Origin: Candidatus Omnitrophota bacterium
GTDB taxonomy: Bacteria > Omnitrophota > Gorgyraeia > 2-01-FULL-45-10
DNA: 58,083 bases
Direction of reading: 5' to 3'
Assembly: GCA_028699255.1 (NCBI GenBank)
Contig: JAQVUX010000001.1
Span: 1-58,083 of the forward strand
Numbering within the stretch: the first letter of the stretch is position 1; each line of letters opens with the position of its first letter. The position numbers and the translations under genes were made by a program. Below the pieces are notes generated by a model. The model was not told the DNA's origin, made no database searches, and saw nothing but the letters and a program-made list of their open reading frames with translations. Shown in pieces: positions 5,450 to 57,666 of the stretch.

Positions 5450-6340
5450 ATGGAGGTGTTTATTATGGGATTCGGTATATTTTTGCTGGTGGCGGGTATT
5501 ATTTTTATATTTCTTATCGGAATAAGGATAGTCCGTCCTACGCATCGCGGTCTGGTAGAACGTTTCGGCAAATATAACAGATTTGCCACACCCGGATTTC
5601 ACTGGCTCATACCGATGATCGAGACCATGTATCAGGTCAACGTCACCGAACAGATGGTGGATGCCGAGCCGCAGGAGATAATAACGAACGATAACTTGAA
5701 CGCGAAGGTCGATGCTCAGGTTTATTTTAAGGTTAAAGCGGATGAAGAGAATGTAAAGAAATCACAATATAGCGCGAATAACTATCTTTACCAGATCGTC
5801 AACCTGGCACGAACGACGCTTAGAAATATAATAGGTACCCTGACGTTGAAGTCAGCCAATAGCGAGAGAGGGAAGATCAACGCAGAGCTACACAACACGC
5901 TTATGTCCGAAACGGCGAATTGGGGGCTCGAGATAGTCAGGACGGAATTAAAAGAGATAGACCCGCCGAAGGATGTACAGGAGACGATGAATAAGGTTGT
6001 TAAGGCGGAAAATGAAAAAGTTGCCGCGGTAGATTTCGCGACGGCCGTCGAAACGGTGGCGGATGGAGAGAGGCGCGCGCAGATAAAGAAGGCCGAGGGC
6101 GCCAGGCAGTCCAGGATCCTGCAGGCACAGGGTGAATCCGAAGCCATCAAACTCGTCAATGAGGCGGCGGAGAAATATTTTGTCGGTAACGCGCAACTTT
6201 TAAGAAGGCTCGAAACGGTTGAAAAAGCGCTGGCCAATAACGTAAAGATCATAGTGCCCGCAGACGGTCAGCTTGTGAATGTTATCGGGGACTTAGCCGG
6301 CATAGTGCCTTTAAAGAAGGATGAGATTTCAAAGAAATGA
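5450..6340 (+). CDS. SPFH/band-7 (stomatin/prohibitin-like) membrane protein
   Basis: N-terminal TM segment followed by a typical SPFH core (VRPTHRGLVERFGKY...ITNDNL...VDAQVYFKV...LRNIIG) and a coiled-coil tail. Confidence 0.88.
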   Translation: MEVFIMGFGIFLLVAGIIFIFLIGIRIVRPTHRGLVERFGKYNRFATPGFHWLIPMIETMYQVNVTEQMVDAEPQEIITNDNLNAKVDAQVYFKVKADEENVKKSQYSANNYLYQIVNLARTTLRNIIGTLTLKSANSERGKINAELHNTLMSETANWGLEIVRTELKEIDPPKDVQETMNKVVKAENEKVAAVDFATAVETVADGERRAQIKKAEGARQSRILQAQGESEAIKLVNEAAEKYFVGNAQLLRRLETVEKALANNVKIIVPADGQLVNVIGDLAGIVPLKKDEISKK

Positions 6341-6870
6341 CCAGACGAAATCACGTTTTTAACGCGGGAATAGTACTCGCGGTTTTTTTGCTGTCCACGA
6401 TTTTTACCTCGAACTCCAGGGGCGATGGAGAAGTGAAGGGTTTAAGGCAATACGAGCGCTGGAATAACGGCACTATCCGCTCCTGCACGCTTTTTGACAC
6501 GAACGGGCTTATGAAAGCAAAGTCCTTCTGCAGGAACGATGGGACGGTGGAAAAGGTCGAGAAATACGATCCCTCCGGCAATAAGATAGAAGAGGCTTTC
6601 TACGACGAGAGAGGCAAGTTAAAGACCGGCATAGACGGATGGTCCGCCATGCGATGGTGGTATAACGGTTCGCATCTTGAGTCGCAGATATCGTATGACG
6701 AAACGGGCACGCCCATGGAGAGGCGTATTTACAGCGAGTCGGGACGGCTCGTGCAAAGGCAATACAGGCATGATATAGATTTTAATCCGTACGAAGAAGC
6801 AAATATGGCGATGTTGTTAGGGCCGCAAAATGTGCCATGCACCGTCGAGAGAAGGCCTCAGCATGAGTAG
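6337..6870 (+). CDS. Hypothetical exported protein with YD/MORN-like repeats
   Basis: ORF track. ATGA overlap with the upstream gene, a signal-anchor sequence, and repeated Y(D/N)xxG(K/x)L-type motifs. Confidence 0.55.
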   Translation: MTRRNHVFNAGIVLAVFLLSTIFTSNSRGDGEVKGLRQYERWNNGTIRSCTLFDTNGLMKAKSFCRNDGTVEKVEKYDPSGNKIEEAFYDERGKLKTGIDGWSAMRWWYNGSHLESQISYDETGTPMERRIYSESGRLVQRQYRHDIDFNPYEEANMAMLLGPQNVPCTVERRPQHE

Positions 6871-6875
6871 GAGAT

Positions 6876-7054
6876 AAAATTTTTCGATCCCGGGAGGCAT
6901 TCCCTCTCGGGGTTGGTATTCCGCAGGGACGCGAAATTTGTCAGCCATGTGAAAATTTCGCTCGAAAAAAATTGCTCGGACGTTGCCTCGCAATTTTTAC
7001 GCCCTGCTTCATACCAACCCCTCGGGGCCCCCTTCAACGGGAATCGAAAAATTT
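6876..7054 (+). repeat. Structured palindromic intergenic element, family 1, copy 1 (near-identical to 15801-15979)
   Basis: Direct comparison with 15801-15979. Nested inverted repeats plus two internal hairpins (6931-6961 and 6967-6998). Confidence 0.85.
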
Positions 7055-7141
7055 CCGGGGCGAACGGGCAAGGCGCGTCATTGCGGCGCGGGCGGAATAA
7101 CCTCACAGGTTGGCAAGGTGTCAGCGTTCAGTAAGTAGTAA

Positions 7142-7167
7142 GTAGGGCACCCTTAAGGGTGCCCTAC
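7142..7167 (+). other. Perfect 11-bp GC-rich hairpin (gtagggcaccc-ttaa-gggtgccctac)
   Basis: Seen directly. Preceded by a gtaagta x2 tandem. No T run follows, so terminator function is uncertain. Confidence 0.6.
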
Positions 7168-7240
7168 AAATGTGGATAACTTTTAGATGCCCGCATCCAG
7201 TAGCGTGAGTAGTGACACCTGTGGTGATAAGGACTGGAAA

Positions 7241-7469
7241 TTTTTACGGGTGGCATAAGGCAGACTTTTTTCGATTATTGAGCGAGGCATGGGATGGGGG
7301 TGCCGCCGCTTAGGATTGATATAGTCAGAGCGGTACTGTCTGACTTAAAAATATCGTAATCAATCCTGGCGGCATACAGATACGCGCCTGGTTTAAATGT
7401 TGATTGTAAACCCCATGCCGAGCGATAAAGAAAAAAGGATGCTTTATGACAGGACCCGTAAAAATTTAT
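7241..7469. repeat. Long (~230 nt) multi-helix imperfect palindrome
   Basis: Perfect 14-bp outer stem aaatttttacgggt / acccgtaaaaattt. Inner pairings are cttttttc/gaaaaaag, (g)gcatgggg/ccccatgc(c), tgccgcc/ggcggca, aggattgat/atcaatcct and gtcaga/tctgac. Confidence 0.7.
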
Positions 7470-7479
7470 CGGAGGAGAT

Positions 7480-10959: not shown

Positions 10960-11697
10960 ATGTCAGGACATTCTAAATGGGCGACGATTAAACACAAAAA
11001 AGCAGCGACCGACGCGAAGAGAGGGTCTCTGTTTACAAAACTGATAAAAGAAATAACGGTAGCGGCACGCAGTGGCGGCAAACCGGACACCAATCCGCGT
11101 CTCAGGGTTGCTATCGAACGCGCCAAAGAAGCATCCATGCCGGCGGATAACATCGACCGCGCCGTAAAAAAAGGCACCGGAGAACTCGAAGGTGTAAGTT
11201 ACGAAGATATAACACTCGAGGGTTATGGCCCGGGCGGTGTGGCGATATACGTCGAAGGTGTTAGCGATAATCGTAACAGGACTACCAGCGAAGTCAGGAC
11301 GATATTCACGAAAAAGGGCGGTAATATGGCAGGCGCCGGTTCGGTGAGTTGGATGTTCGAGAAAAAGGGCTACTTTGTAGTAAGTAAAGCTACGATCGAT
11401 GAAGACAAACTGATGGGTATCGTATTGGACGCAGGCGCCGAAGACCTGGTGGTGGAGGATGAAAACTACGCTGTAAAGACCGCGCCGGCCGATTTTTTCA
11501 AAGTGAAGAAAGCGCTTGATGATAATAAGATATCGACAGAAGACGCGGAGATAACGCTTCTGCCTAAATCTACCGTCAAGGTTGTAGGTGATGATGCTAA
11601 AAAGGTACTAGATCTTGTTGAGGGACTCGAAGAGCACGACGACGTACAACACGTGTATGCCAATTTCGACATACCGGATGATTTATTGAAGGAATAA
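10960..11697 (+). CDS. yebC: YebC/PmpR family DNA-binding regulator
   Basis: The N-terminus MSGHSKWATIKHKKAATDAKRG is diagnostic. Confidence 0.93.
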   Translation: MSGHSKWATIKHKKAATDAKRGSLFTKLIKEITVAARSGGKPDTNPRLRVAIERAKEASMPADNIDRAVKKGTGELEGVSYEDITLEGYGPGGVAIYVEGVSDNRNRTTSEVRTIFTKKGGNMAGAGSVSWMFEKKGYFVVSKATIDEDKLMGIVLDAGAEDLVVEDENYAVKTAPADFFKVKKALDDNKISTEDAEITLLPKSTVKVVGDDAKKVLDLVEGLEEHDDVQHVYANFDIPDDLLKE

Positions 11698-11708
11698 TTC
11701 CGCGAATA

Positions 11709-12200
11709 ATGCGTATACTTGGGATAGATCCCGGGCTACAGATAACGGGTTACGGAGTAATAGAGGACAGGGGGTTTAAACTTATCGAAGCCGGGTTTAT
11801 CAGGACGGCGGCAAAGACGCCCGTACAGGACAGGATTACCAGGATATTCGACGAGATATCTAAAGTAGTTGAGGATCATCGGCCGGATGTCCTTGTTCTT
11901 GAAAAGATATATTCCCACTATAAGCATCCGACCACAGCAATTCTTATGGGGCACGCGCGTGCTATGGCGTGTCTTGTATGCGGAAAGTTCGATATACAGC
12001 TTGTCAATTATCCTTCGACACGCATTAAAAAAGCGATAACCGGCAACGGCCACGCATCGAAACAGCAGGTGCAGAGAATGGTGCAGAGTCTATTGAAACT
12101 CAAAAATCCTCCGGAGCCGGTCGATGTGAGTGACGCTTTGGCGATGGCGATAAGTTATTGTTACATAGAGAAAAAAGATGATCTCGCACATATCCGGTAA
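11709..12200 (+). CDS. ruvC: Holliday junction resolvase RuvC
   Basis: MRILGIDPG...GYGVI start, 163 aa, directly upstream of ruvA and ruvB. Confidence 0.93.
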   Translation: MRILGIDPGLQITGYGVIEDRGFKLIEAGFIRTAAKTPVQDRITRIFDEISKVVEDHRPDVLVLEKIYSHYKHPTTAILMGHARAMACLVCGKFDIQLVNYPSTRIKKAITGNGHASKQQVQRMVQSLLKLKNPPEPVDVSDALAMAISYCYIEKKDDLAHIR

Positions 12201-14427: not shown

Positions 14428-14648
14428 GCGACATGGGATTGTTTGGGAAGATGCTGATCCTGTTCGGGCTTTTGCTCGTTGTGCTCGGAGTCATATTTAC
14501 GCTCGGAGGCAAATTGCCGTGGTTCGGCCGCCTGCCGGGCGATATCTATATCCATAAACGCAACTTCACTTTATTTTTCCCCATAACGACTTCGGTGATA
14601 ATCTCCGTGATCCTGTCGATAATATTGATACTGCTGAGGCGAAGATGA
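14424..14648 (+). CDS. DUF2905 small membrane protein
   Basis: GRLPGDIYI motif between hydrophobic helices. 74 aa. Confidence 0.75.
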   Translation: MSDMGLFGKMLILFGLLLVVLGVIFTLGGKLPWFGRLPGDIYIHKRNFTLFFPITTSVIISVILSIILILLRRR

Positions 14649-15802
14649 GAAAGGTGTCCGCGGCTATCCTGTGTTTATTCATAGGGATGGCGTTTCTGTG
14701 CTCATGTGCCGGCGCCGGTCAGGTGCCCGACACAGAAGTCCGCGTTCTTGTAATAGATGGACGGGATTCTTTTATTATTTCCCTGAAAGGCAAATATACC
14801 ATATGCGAGATGGGCTCCGATAAAGTGCTGGCGGAAGGGCCGTTCTTGTCGGGGGTGGTTTCTGCGGCGAAGAACGGATTGATTCTCGGGAGGAAAGAGG
14901 TAGGGCAGAGCGCGATAACTATAAAGGTTGTGCGCGACGGTAATGTATATATCGATTCCCGCCGGTTCAGAGGAGCTATCGATATAATAAAAAAGTCCGA
15001 CGGCAAGCTGATGGTTGTGAACCGGCTTGGCCTGGATGAATACCTCTACGGTGTCCTGTATAACGAAGTTTCGCATCGCTGGCCGATGGAGGTATTGAAG
15101 GCCCAGGCTATAACTGCCAGAACTTTCGCGCTTTATGAAATAAGGCAGAGCAAGGGGCAGTTGTATGACCTGAGAAACGACATATATTCGCAGGTGTACG
15201 GCGGCAGGACATCGGAAAAATGGGCGACGACGACCGCGGTGGATCGGACTAGGGGGCAGATCCTCGTCTACAACGGAGATATATTCCCCGCCTATTATCA
15301 TGCCACCTGCGGCGGCTACACCGAAGATGCGGCCAATCTGTGGAACGTGAACATCGAGCCGCTCAAAGGTAGTGAGTGCGGATTTTGTTCAGATTCTCCA
15401 CATTACAGATGGTCAAAAGATATCCCTATTGATGCGCTTGAAAAGAAATTAAAGGGCGGCGGTTACAAGGTCGGTAATGTGTCGTCTATCGCCGTGTTGT
15501 CAAAGAATAGATCGGGACGGGTGGACAAGCTCGAGATAAAGGACGGGTTCGGCAGGAGCGTTGTTATGAGTGGGAAGGATTTCAGGCATATGCTGGGGCC
15601 GAACGAAGCGCGCAGTGCGAATTTTGAAATAACTCTGAGGCCGGGCATAGTGCGCATCGATGGAATAGGCTGGGGCCATGGGGTTGGTATGTGCCAGTGG
15701 GGCGCGTACGGCATGTCGCGCAAAGGCTTTAAGGCGGCGGAGATATTACGGCGCTACTATCCCGGGGCGGAAATTTCGACGATCGACAAGATAAAGATGT
15801 AA
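14645..15802 (+). CDS. SpoIID/LytB domain protein (peptidoglycan amidase enhancer / lytic transglycosylase family)
   Basis: LDEYLYGVL..E....WP.E.LKAQAI.ARTFAL ... Y.A.CGGYTE signature. Confidence 0.88.
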   Translation: MRKVSAAILCLFIGMAFLCSCAGAGQVPDTEVRVLVIDGRDSFIISLKGKYTICEMGSDKVLAEGPFLSGVVSAAKNGLILGRKEVGQSAITIKVVRDGNVYIDSRRFRGAIDIIKKSDGKLMVVNRLGLDEYLYGVLYNEVSHRWPMEVLKAQAITARTFALYEIRQSKGQLYDLRNDIYSQVYGGRTSEKWATTTAVDRTRGQILVYNGDIFPAYYHATCGGYTEDAANLWNVNIEPLKGSECGFCSDSPHYRWSKDIPIDALEKKLKGGGYKVGNVSSIAVLSKNRSGRVDKLEIKDGFGRSVVMSGKDFRHMLGPNEARSANFEITLRPGIVRIDGIGWGHGVGMCQWGAYGMSRKGFKAAEILRRYYPGAEISTIDKIKM

Positions 15803-15979
15803 AATTTTTCGATCCCGGGAGGCATCCCCTCTCGGGGTTGGTATTCCGCAGGGACGCGAAATTTTCAGCCATGTGAAAATTTCGCTCGAGAAAAATTGCT
15901 CGGATGTTGCCTCGCAATTTTTACGCCCTGCTCCATACCAACCCCTCGGGGGTCTTTTCCCGCGGAATCGAAAAATTTT
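15801..15979 (+). repeat. Structured palindromic intergenic element, family 1, copy 2
   Basis: Near-identical to 6876-7054. Hairpin P4 lies at 15856-15885 and hairpin P5 at 15891-15922. Confidence 0.85.
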
Positions 15980-16103
15980 ACGAGGGAGAGCAGAAAACAC
16001 CGTTCCGGAACCGAAATTTTGGGTGCCCGCATCTGTTAGCGCGAGTATTGGCACCTGTGGTGATAAGGAAAGTTTCCGGAATATTTTTAGATGACCGATG
16101 TTA

Positions 16104-16267
16104 GGCGAGGGGACTATGCTTACGCGACGACGTAAAAATCGCGAGCGGGCATGGTTCCCGAGCCAGGGTTAGCAAGTAAGCGAGGGAGAGCGAGCGATTT
16201 TTTTTCGAGCGACATTTTTCACGCCGGGAAAAATGGAGCGTTCGGAGCGAAGCATAGTCCCCTCGCC
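16104..16267. repeat. Long hairpin element closed by a perfect 18-bp stem
   Basis: ggcgaggggactatgctt (16104-16121) is the exact reverse complement of aagcatagtcccctcgcc (16250-16267). The interior has further pairing (cgtaaaaatcgc / gcgattttttttcg). Confidence 0.75.
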
Positions 16268-16302
16268 AGAGACAACATGTTCATGAAATAAAAAATTGAA
16301 AT

Positions 16303-17306
16303 ATGAAACTATCCGAGTTTGATTATAACTTACCGAAGGAATTGATCGCGCAGTATCCGGCCCAGAAGCGGGATGCGTGCAGGTTGATGGTGCTCGATCG
16401 CGCTTCGAAGACGATCGCGCATAAGACGTTCGAGGATATCCTCGGATATTTTAAACCCGGCGATCTGCTCGTCCTGAATAATACGAAAGTAATCCCCGCG
16501 CGGCTCTTTGGGAAGCGGAAGTCGGGCGGGAAGGTTGAGTTGTTTCTACTGGAAATGAAGAATCCGATTTGCGAGGCGCTCGTAAAACCGGGGGCGCGGG
16601 TTAAGGATGGAGAAATTATAATTCTCGATTCCGGGGATGAGGTCGAGGTTATGGGGCGCGGCGATATCGGAAGACAGGTAAGATTTAACAGGCCGATCGA
16701 AAGTATTGTGAAAGAAATAGGCCACATGCCATTGCCGCCATACATCGATAGGAACGACGAAGATTCGGACAAACAGAACTATCAGACTATTTACTGCCGG
16801 AAGGAAGGCGCGACCGCAAGCCCGACAGCGGGATTGCATTTTACGGATGAGTTGCTGGACAAAATCGCAGGACGCGGGGTACGGGTTCAATATGTGACGC
16901 TCCACACGAATTACGGGACGTTCGCGCCGGTAAAGACGGAAGATGTCGAGGGGCACAAAATGCATAAGGAACCCTTCGAGCTTTCCGCCGAGACCGCGGA
17001 GGCGATAGTCGAGACGAAGAAGCGCGACGGTAAGGTATACGCGGTCGGGACGACTACGACACGCGTTTTGGAACATTGCGCGCAGAAACTTCCGCGCAGT
17101 GCCGGCGGGCACACCGAAATGTTCATATATCCGGGTTATAAGTTCAAAGTCGTCGATCGCTTAATTACGAATTTCCATCTGCCGAAATCTACGCTTATGC
17201 TACTGGTGAGCGCATTCGCAGGTAAAGACTTTATTCTCGATGCATATCGCCAAGCCATAGCCGAGCGATACAGATTCTTTAGCTATGGCGACGGGATGTT
17301 GATAGT

Positions 17307-17310
<4 letters not shown>
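16303..17310 (+). CDS. queA: S-adenosylmethionine:tRNA ribosyltransferase-isomerase
   Basis: MKLSEFDY.LP.ELIAQ.P start, PLPPYI, and a GTT..R..E motif. Confidence 0.95.
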
Positions 17311-18969
<1,659 letters not shown>

Positions 18970-21198: not shown

Positions 21199-21216
21199 GA
21201 CGTAGTCGAACGTGAT

Positions 21217-21267
21217 TAACCGCGTAGGTTTGTATGCGGGTTAACCCATAGCTAACCTACGCGGTTA
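21217..21267. repeat. REP-like palindromic element, copy 1 (core AACCGCGTAGGTT / AACCTACGCGGTT)
   Basis: Inverted 13-14 nt arms separated by 23 nt, starting 18 nt after the secDF stop. Confidence 0.85.
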
Positions 21268-37002: not shown

Positions 37003-37083
37003 ATAACCGCGTAGGTTATTCGAGTGAAATTACTGGCCAACCTACGCGGTTGACACAGGAGTCTACGCGGTTGATACAGGAGG
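37003..37083. repeat. REP-like palindromic element, copy 2, with a tandemly duplicated right arm
   Basis: Arms at 37005-37017 and 37039-37051. 21-nt direct repeat ctacgcggttga(c/t)acagga at 37042-37062 and 37063-37083. Confidence 0.85.
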
Positions 37084-38612: not shown

Positions 38613-38690
38613 CGGGGGGTGGCTCAGTCCGGCTAGAGCACTTGCTTGGGGTGCAAGGGGTCGAGAGTTCAAATCTCTTCCCCCCGACCA
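38613..38690 (+). tRNA. tRNA-Pro (anticodon GGG), CCA encoded
   Basis: Cloverleaf by eye: acceptor cgggggg/ccccccg, anticodon stem cttgc/gcaag with loop ttGGGgt, T-arm ggtcgagagttcaaatctcttcc, terminal acca. Confidence 0.9.
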
Positions 38691-41077: not shown

Positions 41078-41079
41078 AG

Positions 41080-42288
41080 ATGAAATACGCTATTCTTGTA
41101 GGCGACGGGATGAGCGATTACCCTATTGCGGAACTTGACGGCAAGACGCCGCTCGAGGTATCGAAGATCCCCAATATGAATGAGATGGCACAAGAAGGCC
41201 TCGTGGGCCTCGTGAAGACGATCCCGCGCGGAATGAAGCCGGCCAGCGACATCGCGAATATGTCGATACTCGGCTATGACCCCAAGGCTTACTATACGGG
41301 CCGCGGCCCTCTCGAGGCGGCAAATATAGGTATCGAGATCGAAGAAGATGAAGTGGCGTTCCGTTGTAATTTCGTTACCATAAATAACAACATCATGGCC
41401 GATTACAGCGCCGGCCACATAAGCGACAAGGAATCCAAAGCACTTATCGAGTGCTTGAGCCAGAAGCTCGGGTCGGATAGAGTGAAATTTTATCACGGGA
41501 AGAGCTATCGCAACCTTCTCGTCGTGAAAGCGAAATCTCCGGACGAATTGGCCGATTTGAAAAAAGCGAACTGTGTGCCTCCGCACGATATAGCGCTCAA
41601 AGATATTACCAAAAGCCTTCCCGAAGGCCGCGGCGCCGAGCTTTTAAACGAACTCATGGAAGAGTCCAGGGGTATCCTCGAGAAGCACGAGATAAATAAA
41701 GTCCGCGTCGATCTCGGCGAGAACCCGGCGAATATGATATGGCTATGGGGCCAGGGCACGAATCCGAATATGCCGACGTTCAAAGGTATGTTTGGCATCG
41801 ATGGTGCTGTGATATCGGCGGTGGACCTGGTAAACGGTATAGGCAAGATAGCTGGACTCGAAGTCGTGAGCGTGCCGGGCGCTACCGGTTATTATGATAC
41901 AAATTACCAGGGCAAGGGTGAATATGCCGTCGAGCTTTTGAAAACAAAAGATTTTATATTCGTGCATGTCGAGGCCCCGGACGAGGCCGGACACAACGGA
42001 GAATTAAGAGCGAAGATAACCGCGATCGAGAACTTTGATAAATTCGTGGTGGGGCCGGTATGGAATTTTCTCAAAAACACCCAGGATTACAGGGTAATGG
42101 TGCTCTCGGATCATGCCACGCCCGTGGCGCTCAGGACTCATGTCTCCGATCCCGCGCCGTTCGTTATGGCTGGAAAGTCGGTCGAGCACAACGGTTTTGA
42201 TTCATTCAGCGAAAAAAATGCCGTCGCAGGCAAGGTCAAGTTTAAAACCGGCGCGGCACTTACGGAAGAACTTATTAAAAAGGTGTGA
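41080..42288 (+). CDS. Cofactor-independent phosphoglycerate mutase-like protein (ApgM family), probably the non-canonical homoserine kinase of this thr operon
   Basis: Start at ATG 41080 (MKYAILVGDGMSDYP). Alkaline-phosphatase-superfamily metal motifs (DGM.D, VEAPDEAGH, SDH). Sits 2 nt after thrC and 1 nt before lysC. Confidence 0.8.
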   Translation: MKYAILVGDGMSDYPIAELDGKTPLEVSKIPNMNEMAQEGLVGLVKTIPRGMKPASDIANMSILGYDPKAYYTGRGPLEAANIGIEIEEDEVAFRCNFVTINNNIMADYSAGHISDKESKALIECLSQKLGSDRVKFYHGKSYRNLLVVKAKSPDELADLKKANCVPPHDIALKDITKSLPEGRGAELLNELMEESRGILEKHEINKVRVDLGENPANMIWLWGQGTNPNMPTFKGMFGIDGAVISAVDLVNGIGKIAGLEVVSVPGATGYYDTNYQGKGEYAVELLKTKDFIFVHVEAPDEAGHNGELRAKITAIENFDKFVVGPVWNFLKNTQDYRVMVLSDHATPVALRTHVSDPAPFVMAGKSVEHNGFDSFSEKNAVAGKVKFKTGAALTEELIKKV

Positions 42289-45468: not shown

Positions 45469-46233
45469 ATGAATATAAAAATTATTCCGATAGTCTTTGC
45501 CGCTACGATGTTGACCGCGGGTTTTTCTTTCGCGGACACGATATATTTTACCAACGGCGGCACCATAGAGGGCATTGTCAAAAGCGAGAACGCCGATATT
45601 ATCGAGATCGATGTGGGGTTCGGCACGATAACATGCGCCAGAAATGAAATCGGCAGTATCGAGCGCTCCGACCCCGCCGCGTCCAGGATGTTGACGGAGA
45701 AATGGGCGAAGAGGCGCGAGGAGTTGAAAGCGAGCGAGGCGGCCTTTGAGTTGGAGCGCAAGAAGCGCTTCGAGGAATATGAGCGGCAGGATCGCGAAGA
45801 GCGCGAGCGCGCCGAGCGGGAAGCTAAGGAAGAGGGCACGATAGACTTGACGCGCGATCAGGAGACGAAGGGCATACTGGTCGACGCGGTGCTCAACGAA
45901 AATATAAAAGCGACACTTGTCCTCGATACCGGCGCGTCGATAGTCGTTCTGACAAAGCGGATGGGCGAGCAACTGGGGGTCGACTTAAGCGATCCGGGTA
46001 AAGGCCGGATAACTCTACAGCTGGCGGGCGATCACAAGGTGGACGCGAAATTAGTCATGCTGAAGAGCGTGCGGATCAAAGACATTGAGGTTAAGGGCGT
46101 GATGGCCGGGGTGCTTCTGGATGACGCGGGTGTTGGCCTTAAGGACGGGCTACTCGGCATGACATTCTTAAACCGATTCAATCTCAAGATTGATTTGAAG
46201 AACATGAAGATGTCGCTGGAAAAAACGGGATGA
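45469..46233 (+). CDS. Exported retropepsin-like (clan AA) aspartic protease with a charged coiled-coil linker
   Basis: Signal peptide, an ER-rich linker (RKKRFEEYERQDREERERAEREAKEEG), and the catalytic LVLDTGAS motif. Confidence 0.75.
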   Translation: MNIKIIPIVFAATMLTAGFSFADTIYFTNGGTIEGIVKSENADIIEIDVGFGTITCARNEIGSIERSDPAASRMLTEKWAKRREELKASEAAFELERKKRFEEYERQDREERERAEREAKEEGTIDLTRDQETKGILVDAVLNENIKATLVLDTGASIVVLTKRMGEQLGVDLSDPGKGRITLQLAGDHKVDAKLVMLKSVRIKDIEVKGVMAGVLLDDAGVGLKDGLLGMTFLNRFNLKIDLKNMKMSLEKTG

Positions 46234-46430
46234 CGGAATTTTTCGCTTTACTACCGCGGCGTTTACTTTCGGGTGGTGCCTTCGCTCGTCGCTCGCTCGG
46301 ATTAGCCATCCTCGCTCGCTGTCGTGAAATTTTCGATGGTGAAGCCTGTATCGGCATAAGGTATCGAAAATTTCAAGATTCGCTCCGGCACGCACCCGAA
46401 AGTTCTGCCGTCCGATAGCGCGAAATTTTT
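46233..46430. repeat. Degenerate palindromic element related to the structured family
   Basis: 11-bp stem actttcgggtg (46265-46275) / cacccgaaagt (46393-46403). It encloses a perfect 12-bp hairpin gaaattttcgat (46326-46337) / atcgaaaatttc (46363-46374). Confidence 0.6.
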
Positions 46431-46485
46431 GCACGAGACCGTTTTTTCATGCTGGTGGAGCAGGGAAGAGCGAGACGAGTAACTC

Positions 46486-46541: not shown

Positions 46542-46852
46542 TGAAACCAGTCTAAGTATTTTCTCCTCGTAGGTGGGCAAAGGTTTTGCGTATTTTTCTG
46601 TAGCATAGCGATGAAATGTGCTGTGCCTCTGTGGTTTGCTCCGGACGCTCGGCCGATTCCAGCGATCGGTCTCGCTCCATAAAATTTTTTATGCTCCGCC
46701 GCTACACGGAAAACGAGAAGAGGCGATAGACCAAGCCATAAAAAATTGTAAGGCCGTCGCAAACCACATCGCCACATCACATTTCTGATGGAGCGAATAA
46801 TGTTTTTCACCTCCGAGGAAGGATTACTTAGATTGGTCCTACCTCGGAGGTG
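46531..46852. repeat. Composite ~320-nt palindrome: two inverted hairpin modules flanking a subfamily-2 structured element (46613-46785)
   Basis: The first hairpin is cacctacgagg-23nt-cctcgtaggtg (46531-46575) and the second is cacctccgagg-23nt-cctcggaggtg (46808-46852). Their loops are reverse complements at ~15/23 positions. The central arms are gaaatgtgctgtgcctctgtggtttgc / gcaaaccacatcgccacatcacatttc. Confidence 0.75.
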
Positions 46853-46950: not shown

Positions 46951-47181
46951 ATGGCTACCAAGATGCCTCGACTCAATGTAGTGCTTGAACCGCCGATGTA
47001 TTTTGCCATAGTCGATATGGCAAAAAAGGACGGGGTTTCACTTTCGCTGAAGGCCCGCGACCTTATAAAGGAAGCGTTGGAGTTCTGTGAGGATAGCTTT
47101 TGGGCTAAAGAAGCGAAAAAACGCGAACGCACTTTCAGCCGCAAAAAAGCGATTTCCCATAAGAGCGTGTGGGGCAAGTAA
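46951..47181 (+). CDS. Type II antitoxin, ribbon-helix-helix-like
   Basis: 76 aa with a beta-alpha-alpha pattern (RLNVVLEPPMYFAIVDMAKKDGVSLSLKARDLIKEAL). TAATG overlap with the toxin gene. Confidence 0.7.
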   Translation: MATKMPRLNVVLEPPMYFAIVDMAKKDGVSLSLKARDLIKEALEFCEDSFWAKEAKKRERTFSRKKAISHKSVWGK

Positions 47182-47453
47182 TGAAGTATGACTTGCTATA
47201 TCATCCGGAAGTTAAAGAGGATATCCGGAAGATCCCGGCCAACATAAAGGCGCGTATCCGTAAGGCCATTGAAGCCCGGCTTCAAAACGATCCCATCCAA
47301 TATGGCCAGCCATTACGCCAAAGTCTTAAAGGGCATCGTAAACTTCGAGTGGGGGATTGGCGCGTAATCTATCATGTTGAAGCGACTACTGTGGTGATTA
47401 TTATGATAGGCAATAGAAAAGATGTTTACAAGGAAGTTTATCGCAGAGTTTAG
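47181..47453 (+). CDS. Type II toxin, RelE/ParE superfamily
   Basis: The pattern Y.L.YHP.V..D..K.P......I...I...L...P...G..L...L.G.RKLRVGD(W)RVIY.V......V.I..IG.R..VY is typical of RelE/StbE. Confidence 0.85.
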   Translation: MKYDLLYHPEVKEDIRKIPANIKARIRKAIEARLQNDPIQYGQPLRQSLKGHRKLRVGDWRVIYHVEATTVVIIMIGNRKDVYKEVYRRV

Positions 47454-47536
47454 AGTTTAAAAAGAATGAGTGCGCGCACCCCGGGGTGGGGTGAGATTGC
47501 AATCTCCGTGCCGAGCGATGAAAATCGCTGAGCTGT

Positions 47537-47727
47537 TAAACGGATACGAGGTATGGGGGTTGAGCCGTAAAAATTTACCAAGCTTGGCACAACCACTAAA
47601 GATATTGAAGAATGGTATAGAGGGAAAATAAGGGCGAAGAAGGAGGCAGGTGGAAGGGGTAATTTAACAAAACCTAAGCATCATCGATGGCAAATTTAGG
47701 CGAAGCCCCCTACCTCGTATCCGTTTA
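47537..47727. repeat. Long-range inverted repeat (17 bp + bulge + 5 bp) enclosing a ~146-nt purine-rich segment upstream of valS
   Basis: taaacggatacgaggta(t)ggggg (47537-47559) pairs with ccccctacctcgtatccgttta (47706-47727). Confidence 0.7.
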
Positions 47728-47747
47728 CAGAGTTACTGAGGAGAGAA

Positions 47748-50429
47748 ATGGAAGAACTACCGAAGGCGTATAATCCACACGAAGTTGAAGACAGGCTTTA
47801 CAAGGGCTGGGAAGAGAAGGGCTATTTCCACGCGGAGCCGAACTCGAAGAAGAAACCATATTCGATCGTCATCCCGCCACCGAATATAACCGGCATACTG
47901 CACATGGGACATGCCTTAAATGACACGTTGCAGGACATATTGATACGATTCAAGCGCATGCAGGGCTACGAGGCCGAGTGGATGCCGGGTACCGACCATG
48001 CGGGCATAGCGACGCAGAATGTCGTCGAGCGCAAGCTCGCCAAGGAAGGAAAGAAGCGCCAGGATCTCGGGCGCGAGAAGTTCGTCGACGAGGTGTGGAA
48101 ATGGCGCGAGGAGTACGGCACCACGATAATACGACAGCTCAAGAAGCTGGGCTGTTCGTGCGATTGGGAGAGGACGCGTTTCACCATGGACGAGGGGCTC
48201 TCCGACGCGGTGGTTGACGTATTCATAAAACTTTACGAAAAAGGCCTGATATACAGAGGCAACTACATAATCAACTGGTGTCCCAGGTGCCAGACGGCCC
48301 TGTCCGACGAAGAGAGCCAGCACCGCGATGTCGACGGCATGCTGTACCATATCAAATATCAGATCAAAGGCTCGAAGGAGCACATCATCGTAGCGACGAC
48401 ACGGCCCGAAACGATGTTGGGCGACTCTGCGATTGCGGTCAACCCCAAGGATAAGCGCTACAAAGATCTTAAAGGCAAGTCGGTGATCCTGCCGCTGGTG
48501 AATCGTGAACTTAAAATAATATTCGATCCGATAGTCGATCTCAAATTCGGCACCGGCGCGTTGAAGGTAACCCCGGCGCACGACCCTGTCGACTTCGAGC
48601 TCGGACGGAAGCATTCGCTCGAGCAGATAAACATAATGAACGACGACGCCAGCATAAACGCGCTGGGCGGAGACTATGAGGGTATGGACCGTTTCGAGGC
48701 GCGTGAGGCGATACTCGAAGACCTGAAGGCGCACGGCCTCTTCGTAAAGAGCGAGCCGCACCGCCACGCGGTCGGCCACTGCTACCGTTGCCATACGATG
48801 GTCGAGCCGCGGCTCTCGCCGCAGTGGTTCGTGAAGATGAAGCCTCTGGCGAAGCCCGCTATCGATGTAGTTCGCAAAGGCGAAGTCAAATTTTATCCCG
48901 AGCGCTGGACGAAAGTCTATCTCGAGTGGATGACGAATATCCGCGACTGGTGCATTTCGCGGCAGATATGGTGGGGGCATCGCATACCTGTATATTATTG
49001 CAAAAAATGTCAGGAACTGGAAAAGCAGAATCCAAATCCGGATACTCAAGCGGGCGTGATGGTTGCAAAGGCCCGGCCTGAAAAGTGCCCTAAGTGCGGA
49101 TCGACGGATATAGTACAGGATCCGGACGTGCTCGATACGTGGTTTTCGTCATGGCTTTGGCCTTTCTCGACGTTCGGATGGCCTAAGGAAACGCCGGAAC
49201 TGAAGTATTTCTATCCGACGAATACGCTGGCGACGGCGCAGGAGATAATATTCTTCTGGGTGGCGCGGATGATAATGGCCGGCATCGAATTCAGAGGCGC
49301 GGCGCCGTTCAAAGACGTATATATTCACGGTACGGTCAGGGACATTACCGGCACCAAGATGTCGAAGTCTTTAGGCAATGTTATCGACCCGCTCGACATG
49401 ATAGCCAAATACGGCACCGACGCGCTCCGTTTCAGCATCATATCGATCACCGCCCAGGGGCAGGACGTATTCCTCGCCGAGGGCAAATTCGAGCTTGGAA
49501 GGAACTTCGCCAATAAGCTCTGGAACGCTTCCCGTTTCATTCTCATGAACCTGAAGCCCGACGAGGTAGACGCCGACCTGTGCGTATTCTTTAAAGGCGC
49601 CCGCCTTACGCTTCCCGAGAAGTGGATACTCTCGAGCCTTTATTCCACGCTCGATTATGTAACGAAATGCCTCGACGAGTATAAGTTTAATGAAGCGGCC
49701 AATTCTATATATGAATTCATCTGGCACGAGTTCTGCGACTGGTACATCGAGACGGCGAAATCGACTATAAGTGAAAAGACGTCGCAGGTCATACTTTATA
49801 AAGTGCTGGAGAAGAGTTTAAGGATGCTCCATCCCATAATGCCGTTCGTTACCGAAGAGATATGGCAGAAGCTTCCATCCATATCTGCCGTCGTAGGCGA
49901 TTCCATAATGATACAATCGTGGCCGCACGTCCAGCAGGATATGATATCGAAAGAAGCGGAAGAAAAGATGAAGGAGCTCATCGAGATCATAACGACCATA
50001 CGCAATATACGCGCGGTGTGGAATATCGACCCGCAGACTTCTGTCAAGGTCATGGTTAATGTCCGCGACACTGCGACGGAAAAATTGCTTCAGGAAAACG
50101 CGGAGCTTATAAAACGCATGGCGCGCTCGTCGAGCCTTGCGATAGGTGCTCTCGCCAAACCCGCGAACGCCGCCGCGAGCGTCATCGGGCGGATCGAGGT
50201 ATATGTGCCGCTAGAAGGGCTCATAGATTTCGCGAAGGAACGCGCCAGGCTTGAGAAGGAAGAGGGGCGCATCTCCGCCGAGATCAAGGCTATAGGGGCG
50301 CGGCTTAAAGACAGGAACTTTACCGCCAAAGCGCCAAAAGAAGTGGTCGAGAAACAGGCGGGGCACAAGCTGGAGCTTGAAGACAGGCTTAAGAAATTGA
50401 AGAGTAATTTAAAGGGGATAACCGCGTAG
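47748..50429 (+). CDS. valS: Valine--tRNA ligase
   Basis: PPPN(I)TG.LHMGHA, KMSKSLGN, and a C-terminal coiled coil. 893 aa. Confidence 0.97.
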   Translation: MEELPKAYNPHEVEDRLYKGWEEKGYFHAEPNSKKKPYSIVIPPPNITGILHMGHALNDTLQDILIRFKRMQGYEAEWMPGTDHAGIATQNVVERKLAKEGKKRQDLGREKFVDEVWKWREEYGTTIIRQLKKLGCSCDWERTRFTMDEGLSDAVVDVFIKLYEKGLIYRGNYIINWCPRCQTALSDEESQHRDVDGMLYHIKYQIKGSKEHIIVATTRPETMLGDSAIAVNPKDKRYKDLKGKSVILPLVNRELKIIFDPIVDLKFGTGALKVTPAHDPVDFELGRKHSLEQINIMNDDASINALGGDYEGMDRFEAREAILEDLKAHGLFVKSEPHRHAVGHCYRCHTMVEPRLSPQWFVKMKPLAKPAIDVVRKGEVKFYPERWTKVYLEWMTNIRDWCISRQIWWGHRIPVYYCKKCQELEKQNPNPDTQAGVMVAKARPEKCPKCGSTDIVQDPDVLDTWFSSWLWPFSTFGWPKETPELKYFYPTNTLATAQEIIFFWVARMIMAGIEFRGAAPFKDVYIHGTVRDITGTKMSKSLGNVIDPLDMIAKYGTDALRFSIISITAQGQDVFLAEGKFELGRNFANKLWNASRFILMNLKPDEVDADLCVFFKGARLTLPEKWILSSLYSTLDYVTKCLDEYKFNEAANSIYEFIWHEFCDWYIETAKSTISEKTSQVILYKVLEKSLRMLHPIMPFVTEEIWQKLPSISAVVGDSIMIQSWPHVQQDMISKEAEEKMKELIEIITTIRNIRAVWNIDPQTSVKVMVNVRDTATEKLLQENAELIKRMARSSSLAIGALAKPANAAASVIGRIEVYVPLEGLIDFAKERARLEKEEGRISAEIKAIGARLKDRNFTAKAPKEVVEKQAGHKLELEDRLKKLKSNLKGITA

Positions 50430-50471
50430 GTTATCTACCGATCAATGCATGGCCAACCTACGCGGTTGGCC
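50418..50471. repeat. REP-like palindromic element, copy 3 (its left arm contains the valS stop codon)
   Basis: Cores at 50420-50432 and 50455-50467. The valS TAG is at 50427-50429. Confidence 0.85.
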
Positions 50472-50488
50472 AAATAAAGGGAGGGCAC

Positions 50489-50752
50489 ATGAGGTATTTA
50501 TTTGTAGTCGTAGCGATATTTGCGATGTCTTATGCCGGTATAGCAGTGGCTCAGGATGACGCTAAGAGCGCCGCCACGCAGGGCGCAGTGGAAAAACCGA
50601 TAGTAGTCGATTCGAACGATGCCCCCGCCGGCGATGACGACGGTTTTGAGGATCGCGAGTCCAGGAGGGTGCCGCCCGCGCAGGTTTACGACGAGAATAC
50701 GGGCATACCGAATGTCGTTGAAAGCGATAAAGAAGGGGAGATCGGCTGGTAA
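50489..50752 (+). CDS. Small acidic exported hypothetical protein
   Basis: ORF track. ggagg RBS, a signal peptide (VVAIFAMSYAGIAVA), and a TAATG overlap with nadC. Confidence 0.55.
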   Translation: MRYLFVVVAIFAMSYAGIAVAQDDAKSAATQGAVEKPIVVDSNDAPAGDDDGFEDRESRRVPPAQVYDENTGIPNVVESDKEGEIGW

Positions 50753-51627
50753 TGAAGCTCGAGAAGGAAAGGGCGCTACCGATAATCAAGGCCGCGCTTA
50801 AAGAAGACATAGGTAAAGGCGATATCACGACCACCGCGCTTGTTTCAGGTACTACGAGTTCGAAGGCGAGCATAATCGCCAAAGAGACCTGTGTGGTTTG
50901 CGGGCTCAAGATAGCGGAATGGGTGATGGCGCAGATCGACTTCAGTGTGAGATTTAAGCCGAACTGCGACGACGGAAGTTTTGTGGGAAACACCAAGGAG
51001 ATCGCTTATCTCGAGGGGCATACCGGTTCTATTATGCGAGCGGAGAGGACGATGCTCAATTTCCTGTCGTTCTTGAGCGCCGTGGCTACGACAACGAAAG
51101 CATACGCCGACAAAGCGAGGCCGTACGGAGTTAAGATTATGGATACGCGCAAGACCTTGCCGCTCATGAGGTATTTGGAAAAATATGCCGTATTTACCGG
51201 CGGCGGCGCGAACCACAGGATGGGATTGTACGATCAGGTTTTAATAAAAGATAATCATATAGGCGTATTGCGCCAGACTGCCGGTAGTGAAAATAAGAAG
51301 ATTGCATTAAAAACAATAGTCGAGACGGCGAGAAGGAAGAGTGTAAAAGGAACGGTTATCGAGATAGAGGTCGCGTCGATCGAGGAGTTCAATGACGCAC
51401 TCGCGGGGAAACCGGACATCATAATGCTCGACAATATGTCGCCCGAGGACGTCAGGGCGTGCGTCGAGATACGCCGCTTGTCGAAGGTGAAGCCTGTTAT
51501 CGAGGTCTCGGGAGGCATAACCCTGGATACGATCGAATCCTTCGCGAAAACGAAGCCGGACGTTATTTCTATAGGATCGCTTACGGCATCGATAAAATCG
51601 ATAGATATGTCGCTGGAAATCGTGTGA
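50752..51627 (+). CDS. nadC: Nicotinate-nucleotide diphosphorylase (carboxylating)
   Basis: Typical QPRTase pattern (L.ED.G.GDIT, R..LN(F)L...S..AT, DTRKT.P..R...KYAV..GG..NHR..L.D...IKDNH, MLDN). Confidence 0.93.
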
Positions 51628-57494: not shown

Positions 57495-57507
57495 GATTAA
57501 TGTCAGT

Positions 57508-57557
57508 CAACCGCGTAGGTTAGCCAGGTGTTTGCAACCGGATAACCTACGCGGTTG
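57508..57557. repeat. REP-like palindromic element, copy 4
   Basis: Cores at 57509-57521 and 57544-57556, starting 14 nt after the groEL stop. Confidence 0.85.
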
Positions 57558-57573
57558 TACGGTTAATGATCAA

Positions 57574-57609
57574 ATGGCTCGGAGGTTAAATTCTCCGGGC
57601 CATTTTTTT
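57574..57609 (+). terminator. Rho-independent terminator of groESL
   Basis: atggctcggag-8nt-ctccgggccat (one G-U pair) followed by a T7 run. Confidence 0.85.
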
Positions 57610-57666
57610 ATTTTCACGGCTTGCAAAAATACATTTTGAGATATATACTCTAACGAGGAGGGCAGA

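Follow-up and report, generated by a model that had tools for sequence, protein, structure and literature searches.

The window, that is, the whole stretch of 58,083 nucleotides analysed here (positions 1 to 58,083 of contig JAQVUX010000001.1 of a Candidatus Omnitrophota bacterium), has nearly all of its genes on the plus strand. A 23S rRNA gene (3′ two-thirds), a 5S rRNA gene and one tRNA gene are found at 1–2296 and 38613–38687. Two near-identical sequences of about 180 nt, both on the plus strand, lie at the ends of unrelated genes. The first, copy A (6874–7058), starts 6 nt past the TAG (6868–6870) of a gene encoding a protein of 177 residues (6337–6870, plus strand). The second, copy B (15799–15982), overlaps the end of a spoIID-family gene (14645–15802, plus strand; PF08486), and the SpoIID stop codon TAA (15800–15802) is formed by the first bases of the copy, its TAAAAT terminus. 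The spoIID gene is followed on the plus strand by queA (16303–17310; PF02547) and tgt (17504–18714), the orthologues of which identify 17504 as the true start.

Global alignment of the two copies (6876–7054 with 15801–15979) showed that the first 152 columns contain 4 substitutions and a single 1-nt indel. A first-pass annotation of this DNA, made by eye, had counted about five substitutions and one indel and had noted a more diverged tail; the divergence lies in columns 153–164, and the 3′ terminus beyond them is again conserved. It had also placed the copies at two stop codons, as described above. Its proposal that the element is non-coding was borne out: the indel breaks the reading frames common to A and B, and the translation of the longest ORF of the element, which was compared with 5.8 billion proteins in a search for mis-called ORFs on other copies, had no match. 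Rfam gave no match on any element, either at the gathering thresholds or at E ≤ 1, in agreement with the earlier view that this is no named RNA family. The family, for which it had recommended a covariance-model search, numbers six members in the window and around 35 more elsewhere.

The six members in the window were scored with two covariance models, R1 and R2. Copies A (205.7 bits with R1, 179.5 bits with R2) and B (210.7 bits with R1) share arms that we call type 1. Copy C (17307–17484, plus strand; R1 141.6 bits) was found by BLAST and by R1 and has type 2 arms; its architecture is identical to that of A and B, with many compensatory changes. The terminus of copy C supplies the TAA stop codon of QueA, and its 3′ end lies about 20 nt before the start of Tgt at 17504. 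The longest tgt ORF (445 residues, from 17377) begins inside this copy, and automatic annotation likely over-extends tgt; some database QueA homologues (353–359 residues) look over-extended too. Copy F (16077–16300, minus strand; 44.7 bits with R1, 61 bits with R2) is diverged, with extra sequence inserted into the P5 loop. It directly adjoins the start codon of QueA (16303) and has a close counterpart, similarly placed, in contig L201 (3842–3996; the relatives are denoted by L numbers throughout). The diverged copy D (46233–46432, plus strand; R1 24.4 bits, R2 30 bits) starts 1 nt past the TGA of the gene at 45469–46233 and has BLAST matches in L086, L116 and L089. Copy E (46587–46807, plus strand; R1 18.6 bits, R2 41.7 bits) is of type 3, with P4 swapped for a G+C-rich hairpin, and its relatives are in L146 (77% identity), L096 and L110.

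The element measures 172–215 nt. It is bounded by inverted termini of 13 nt with the consensus GTAAAATTTTTCG...CGAAAAATTTTAC, which are conserved in about 30 copies. The core reads, in order, GGGACGCG, hairpin P4 (loop CCATG), CGCTCG, hairpin P5 (loop CTCGNAC.CTGCCTCG) and then a box, TTTTAACGCC. Both core hairpins have A/T stems. The core is 85–91% identical between the window and distant copies, whereas the arms differ and fall into at least three subtypes, of which type 2 has conserved C·U and U·C mismatches and a bulged A. Of 32 copies, 28 have xTA as the 5′ flank (GTA in 17), 20 have TAx as the 3′ flank, and 21 have TA on both sides. Since TA is self-complementary and the next bases (G...C) extend the palindrome, the flanking TA may belong to the inverted repeat and not be a target-site duplication. 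No direct repeat of at least 3 nt was found at the flanks of the 32 copies. A TA duplication of the stop codon was rejected because the base after the 3′ TA is rarely A or G (C or T in 18 of 20 cases), and an IS66-like model (GTAA ends, 8-bp duplication) was rejected because the flanks contain no 8-bp repeat.

The nested fold of four parts drawn on paper in the first-pass annotation, comprising an outer stem, a second stem and the hairpins P4 (6931–6961) and P5 (6967–6998), is indeed the minimum-free-energy structure. The fold energies are −80.9 (copy A) and −95.9 kcal/mol (copy B), corresponding to z values of −6.4 and −10.5 against dinucleotide shuffles, and none of 200 shuffles folded as well. 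In an alignment of 26 sequences, which was fitted to the covariance model, 91.2% of the pairing cells are paired, compared with 75.9% for shuffles and 32–53% (about 45%) for slid controls. Double-sided changes are present in 45 of the 68 pairs of this alignment (45–55 of 68 over two similar runs). The covariation score is 0.354 versus 0.119, and none of 500 shuffles attained the higher value. An independent MAFFT/RNAalifold run gave double-sided changes in 26 of 43 pairs. In the core helices, one-sided (G–U) changes are rare.

By the criteria of the annotation, significant covariation would have counted in favour of a functional RNA. Covariation is significant, but the strand tests show no signature that is specific to RNA. 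The opposite strand folds about equally well (z = −8.2), and in 27 of 33 copies the antisense RNA folds more stably, on average by 5.4 kcal/mol. On the sense strand, 60 G–U cells are found versus 41 A–C mismatches. Neither these counts nor the minimum free energies point clearly to the sense RNA as the seat of the structure. With both strands folding and no clear excess of G–U on the sense strand, the pairing cannot be ascribed to RNA over DNA.

The further members, about 35 in number, come from Candidatus Omnitrophota genomes and metagenome contigs. A gapped pattern search based on the termini returned 116 stretches from JGI metagenomes, of which around 30 are strong members (66–145 bits), often several to a contig. 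Four copies are present on the 11.8-kb contig L089 and at least four on a 328-kb contig (Ga0209514_10000038). Near-identical pairs at unrelated sites occur in two genomes, namely A and B in the window and the L104/L089 pair (96%). An exact 20-mer from the second stem had no occurrence in GTDB representative genomes or in JGI metagenomes, neither of which includes the source organism. Nothing similar was found in plasmid, phage and E. coli collections (5,426 E. coli genomes). Breaks in Logan short-read contigs were considered as a sign of many copies and were discarded as such, being explicable by the two window copies alone.

The genes flanking the copies are unrelated housekeeping genes in conserved order; from their translations, we take the upstream ones to include coaX, pth, metG, queA, argG, a transketolase gene, priA, recO, xerC and ftsW. 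When 33 strong copies were oriented by their core, 28 had a co-oriented ORF (of at least 100 residues) ending between −3 and +11 nt from the start of the element, and in 17 of these 28 the stop codon of the gene is the element's own TAA. One copy (L091 11908–12085) is anti-oriented at a stop codon, and four adjoin no ORF end. The binomial probability of 28 versus 1 is about 1e-7 (1.3e-7 was computed for 31 of 33). Copies in the opposite orientation are those at 16077–16300 in the window, in L089, in L201 and at L091 11908–12085. Solo copies sit inside conserved operons, 0–64 nt before the next start (copy C before tgt, L005b, L179 and L202); the spacer behind them is purine-rich and 13–64 nt long, and in L202 there is none. 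At an orthologous site in L101 and L142, the element shows 88% identity, compared with 83% for the whole of the adjacent gene and 64% for its third codon positions. Even where SpoIID is only about 60% identical between genomes, the core loops and termini remain conserved.

The nearest genomes are Candidatus Omnitrophota MAGs, and the spoIID, queA and tgt genes form a tight operon across the phylum. The ancestral junctions overlap or are 1–3 nt apart; L003, for instance, has TGAgATG and TAATG, and many other genomes have GTGA or ATGA. The last residue of SpoIID and of QueA does not depend on whether an element follows, so the elements are insertions at these junctions. We call a junction filled when it is occupied by a member of this repeat family. 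In the window, both are filled, spoIID/queA by copy B, a D5 motif (described below) and copy F (500 nt in total) and queA/tgt by copy C. The closest relative, L003 (QueA 81% identical), is empty at both. L199 (78%) is filled at spoIID/queA and empty at queA/tgt, and L201 (77%) is the reverse, with 543 nt at queA/tgt made up of a repeat of about 290 nt with similar termini and then a minus-strand family member. L202 and L200 (76% each) have no member at queA/tgt, where 92 nt of unrelated sequence and 83 nt with an unrelated hairpin, respectively, are found; at spoIID/queA, L202 is filled and L200 is empty. The spoIID/queA junction is also filled in L004 and L012, the contigs of which end before queA/tgt, and both junctions are filled in L005. 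The queA/tgt junction of L087 is filled. L010 has a truncated derivative of about 95 nt at spoIID/queA and, at queA/tgt, no member and an unrelated repeat hairpin. L007 has no member and an unrelated repeat hairpin at spoIID/queA; its queA/tgt junction holds a stretch of about 100 nt with similar termini that neither R1 nor R2 matched.

The arms differ even at the same site. After spoIID, type 1 is found in the window and type 2 in L005 and L199; after the gene read as argG, type 1 is found in L183 and type 2 in L179. This patchwork, with L003 being both the closest relative and empty, points to repeated gain and hence to mobility. The empty sites that the first-pass annotation had advised looking for in relatives exist at both the spoIID/queA and the queA/tgt junctions. 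Of the two signs of a MITE that it had named, presence/absence polymorphism was found; as for a target-site duplication, there is nothing longer than the self-complementary TA. One seamless pair of filled and empty sites is provided by L202 against L200 and L201. Removal of about 170 nt (TAAAGTTTTTCG...GGGAAAAATTA) from L202 gives ...GTG|TGA AGC TAT C.., an overlap as in L200 and L201. In the filled allele, SpoIID is ended by the TAA of the element, and the start codon of queA consists of the last A of the element plus TG from the host. The lengths of both proteins are unchanged, and the insertion is compatible with a duplication of 0–1 nt.

Long hairpins made of short simple repeats (TAAGCT.., GTAACT.., CAGTTGC..) were observed directly after the SpoIID or QueA stops of L006, L007, L010, L017, L020, L022, L038 and L051. 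Their presence after the same stops in many other Omnitrophota suggests that hairpins at the ends of genes are a trait of the phylum as a whole. In L005, an extra ORF for a membrane-like protein of 189 residues (11365–11934) lies between spoIID and queA. It has no match in Pfam; with an element to its left and a terminus-like motif to its right, it may be a passenger gene.

The family shares its intergenic regions with other repeats. The D5 motif of about 50 nt (TGCC.GC....TTAG....TTGGCAC) is found on the plus strand at 7178–7233 and, shared with it, at 16014–16069 downstream of copy B. It follows plus-strand copies in the window and in other genomes, is also present at L089 160–215 and 3296–3335, and always lies just before a left terminus resembling that of a second structured repeat family, type X. 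The type X repeat of the window (7236–7470, plus strand; about 235 nt) has the termini AAATTTTTCGGGT...ACCCGAAAAATTT, which are of the AAATTTTTCG...CGAAAAATTT type as in the main family, and is 75–88% identical to copies in L089, L109, L156, L137 and L112. Plus-strand copies often have a D5-like motif and then type X behind them. Logan contig L001 starts within type X. Degenerate forms include the truncated L010 derivative (~95 nt) and a 41-nt "mini-X" in L199 that consists of the termini only; there are also mosaics and tandem arrays with the families that have the same termini. The minus-strand subtype with the enlarged P5 loop adjoins the downstream start codon (window 16077–16300, L201 3842–3996), and L089 has weaker minus-strand copies after the plus-strand ones. 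Several families with one pair of termini, packed into the same gaps, fit a common trans-acting enzyme.

Further structured sequences were observed in the window. A different palindromic element with inverted ends of about 20 nt (AAACGGATACGAGGTAGGGGG; fold z = −5.7) occupies 47535–47728, just upstream of the valyl-tRNA synthetase gene. The repeat-rich gap between the gene at 45469–46233 and valS also contains, at 46951–47453, a small ORF and, behind it, a gene for a ParE-type toxin (PF05016), which together resemble an accessory toxin–antitoxin pair. A REP-like repeat of about 65 nt, with a GTAG/GTAA start and a 13-bp stem (AACCGCGTAGGTT...AACCTACGCGGTT), lies directly at the ends of two unrelated genes (21202–21267 and 50404–50467). 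A perfect 12-bp hairpin (GTAGGGCACCCT-TA-AGGGTGCCCTAC) at 7141–7168 is preceded by GTAAGTA repeats. A stretch of 51 nt at 57506–57556 recurs as an inverted repeat at 37005–37054 with 84% identity, and 57512–57612 weakly matches the trpB motif of Rfam (40.4 bits versus a gathering score of 59; E = 0.034). Two gaps of about 1 kb, at 41078–42112 (upstream of an aspartate kinase gene) and 50430–51458, have no convincing ORF or Rfam match.

We consider it likely that the family consists of non-coding, nested-palindromic, MITE-like repeats of a non-autonomous mobile kind, comparable to ERIC and Correia, within an Omnitrophota clade. Four features of MITEs are present, namely small size (under about 500 bp) without coding capacity, terminal inverted repeats, many dispersed copies and presence/absence polymorphism. 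Among the options raised in the first-pass annotation, a mobile element is favoured by the multiple copies, patchy occupancy, truncations, mosaics and termini. The gene-specific options find no support, given the unrelated genes and the positions inside operons; the element is not a gene-specific attenuator and not a small RNA gene. The Omnitrophota family is previously undescribed (our literature search on Omnitrophota repeats found no earlier description), and it adds to an already known kind of element instead of representing a novel regulatory RNA.

The behaviour of ERIC, Correia and QMITE2 is similar to that of the Omnitrophota element (PMC10969869, PMC2229807). ERIC/IRU sequences of Enterobacteria, notably Yersinia, are multi-copy, transcribed intergenic imperfect palindromes of about 127 bp, and their insertion at the 3′ ends of genes has orientation-dependent effects on mRNA (PMC10969869, PMC2229807). 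The present element is likewise a non-coding, multi-copy imperfect palindrome between genes. However, it is unrelated in sequence, belongs to another phylum, is longer (175–215 nt) and branched with a core of two hairpins, and in about half of the copies the stop codon comes from its terminus. To our knowledge, an orientation bias such as the 28:1 seen here has not been reported for ERIC. The Correia elements of Neisseria (NEMIS/CREE) are MITEs that have terminal inverted repeats and a TA at each end; they are co-transcribed with their neighbours, and their repeats pair into a long RNA stem, which RNase III cleaves. The Omnitrophota element resembles them in its terminal inverted repeats; the TA on its two sides may be part of the inverted repeat and not a duplication. 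It differs in having no sequence relation and in its position at stop codons, whereas Correia lies upstream of genes, and no IHF site or promoter was identified in it.

We infer that the copies were transposed by some enzyme and that selection accounts for their position at stop codons. A trans-acting enzyme would recognise the common termini and move both these elements and the other repeat families with the same termini. In compact genomes with overlapping or abutting genes, an insertion would survive only if the stop codon, the downstream ribosome-binding site and the start codon were spared. With spacers of 0–20 nt, the neutral site would be between the stop and the next ribosome-binding site or in the stop/start overlap, and within the overlap an insertion would be neutral only if both codons were re-created. 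The palindromic A/T termini (TAA...TTA) could achieve this, the 5′ TAA remaking the stop and the terminal A, together with TG from the host, remaking the start. As insertions would spare stop and start through their termini, copies would accumulate exactly at stop codons in operons, where they are presumably co-transcribed as part of the operon mRNA. Such a selection filter would explain the position without a gene-specific function; it leaves the orientation bias unexplained.

A Pfam scan of 20 proteins, the products of 19 ORFs of the window and of one from L005, gave no transposase domain. The loci were also scanned for an autonomous partner in the form of pairs of termini 0.7–3 kb apart; this gave only the membrane-like ORF of 189 residues in L005, and nothing transposase-like. 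The conservation across divergent genomes and the 28:1 orientation bias indicate a constraint that exceeds the needs of a plain selfish MITE with symmetric ends. The conserved element, loops and orientation are equally compatible with an RNA role, with transposition as single-stranded DNA and with gene conversion.

A role for the host at the RNA level is possible. We regard it as unlikely that the element is primarily a host-functional, strand-specific intercistronic RNA module that was spread by duplication. Once folded, the long stem would place the upstream stop beside the ribosome-binding site of the next gene, which could preserve translational coupling; alternatively, the element could be a site of RNase III/E processing or stabilisation that tunes operon expression. 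Of the 29 copies next to a gene end, 28 have the orientation of the upstream gene, the covariation is strong (91% of cells paired versus 76% in shuffles), and the loops (CCATG and CTCGNAC.CTGCCTCG) and the box TTTTAACGCC stay conserved as the arms vary. Synonymous sites next to the element have diverged further than the element itself, and ERIC and Correia set a precedent for orientation-dependent RNA effects. However, L003 is empty at both junctions with the overlapping stop/start kept, and the element is therefore dispensable. Occupancy is patchy among relatives with 76–81% QueA identity, copies in the opposite orientation exist, 27 of 33 copies fold better on the antisense strand, and G–U (60) is barely above A–C (41), leaving no RNA-only signature. 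It is rather improbable that a strand-specific module is actively targeted to operon stop/start junctions, either as a structured intercistronic RNA with control over coupling or processing or through mobility linked to single strands or RNA that recognises gene ends. Such targeting would account for the 28:1 bias, for the conservation of the loops and for the repeated, independent filling of identical junctions.

We judge it quite improbable that the element moves as single-stranded DNA through an HUH/Y1 enzyme, like REP/RAYT or palindromes derived from IS200/IS605, and not through a DDE transposase. The hairpins would then be recognition structures for the enzyme, and the orientation bias would reflect the direction of replication. 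REPs are 20–40 nt long, carry a GTAG or CGTC tag and are mobilised by RAYT transposases. As in REPs and BIMEs, the palindromes here form intergenic mosaics with alternating orientations and short motifs, and their structure is conserved by compensatory changes. The L202 insertion is seamless and has no clear duplication, the stems are kept almost entirely by changes from one Watson–Crick pair to another with few G–U intermediates, as in DNA hairpins, the type 2 arm mismatches and bulged A are conserved, and the bias was seen on contigs with nearly all genes on one strand. Unlike REPs, the element is branched, far larger at 180 nt and has GTAA at both ends with true terminal inverted repeats; we know of no terminal inverted repeats in IS200/IS605-type elements. 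There is no conserved target of 4–5 nt on one side only, no RAYT gene or Y1 transposase was seen among the window ORFs tested, and one contig with all genes on the minus strand carries two copies in opposite orientations. An intrinsic terminator or attenuator after the upstream gene would also start at stop codons, be co-oriented with the gene and end in a palindrome of an A-tract and a U-tract, as observed. This reading is nevertheless very improbable: the terminator scan was negative at the element sites, the stem beside the U-run is A/U-rich, and the U-run itself is 4 nt long and paired. Solo copies lie 0–64 nt before the next start in operons, which leaves no room for a promoter, and relatives run the same genes with overlapping codons. 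Scarcely credible is the suggestion that the copies are attC-like recombination sites of an integron cassette system. Like attC sites (for example, the Vibrio cholerae repeats), they are imperfect palindromes in fixed orientation at the stop of the preceding ORF, with structure conserved more than sequence; within a genome they are near-identical, like Vibrio VCRs, and the accessory ParE-type toxin module and another ORF lie between elements. However, the neighbours are conserved housekeeping operon genes in conserved order and not cassettes. The termini are GTAAAAT...ATTTTAC and not RYYYAAC...GTTRRRY, with core-like and inverse-core-like motifs in the opposite order, so the core sites differ as well as the flanking genes. 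The length of 175–215 nt exceeds that of attC, and no integrase was seen in the ORFs tested.

The family explains assembly breaks and mis-called ORFs and starts in Omnitrophota, such as the 445-residue tgt ORF from 17377, and it also accounts for spurious minus-strand ORFs of 82 and 102 residues. Its covariance model can be used to mask such repeats. In this phylum, which is without genetics, a function at the level of RNA or of single-stranded DNA would be compatible with the strong orientation bias and with the conservation of the core. The family shows how a mobile repeat can inhabit tightly coupled operons, with termini that remake the stop codon and, at least once, the start codon.
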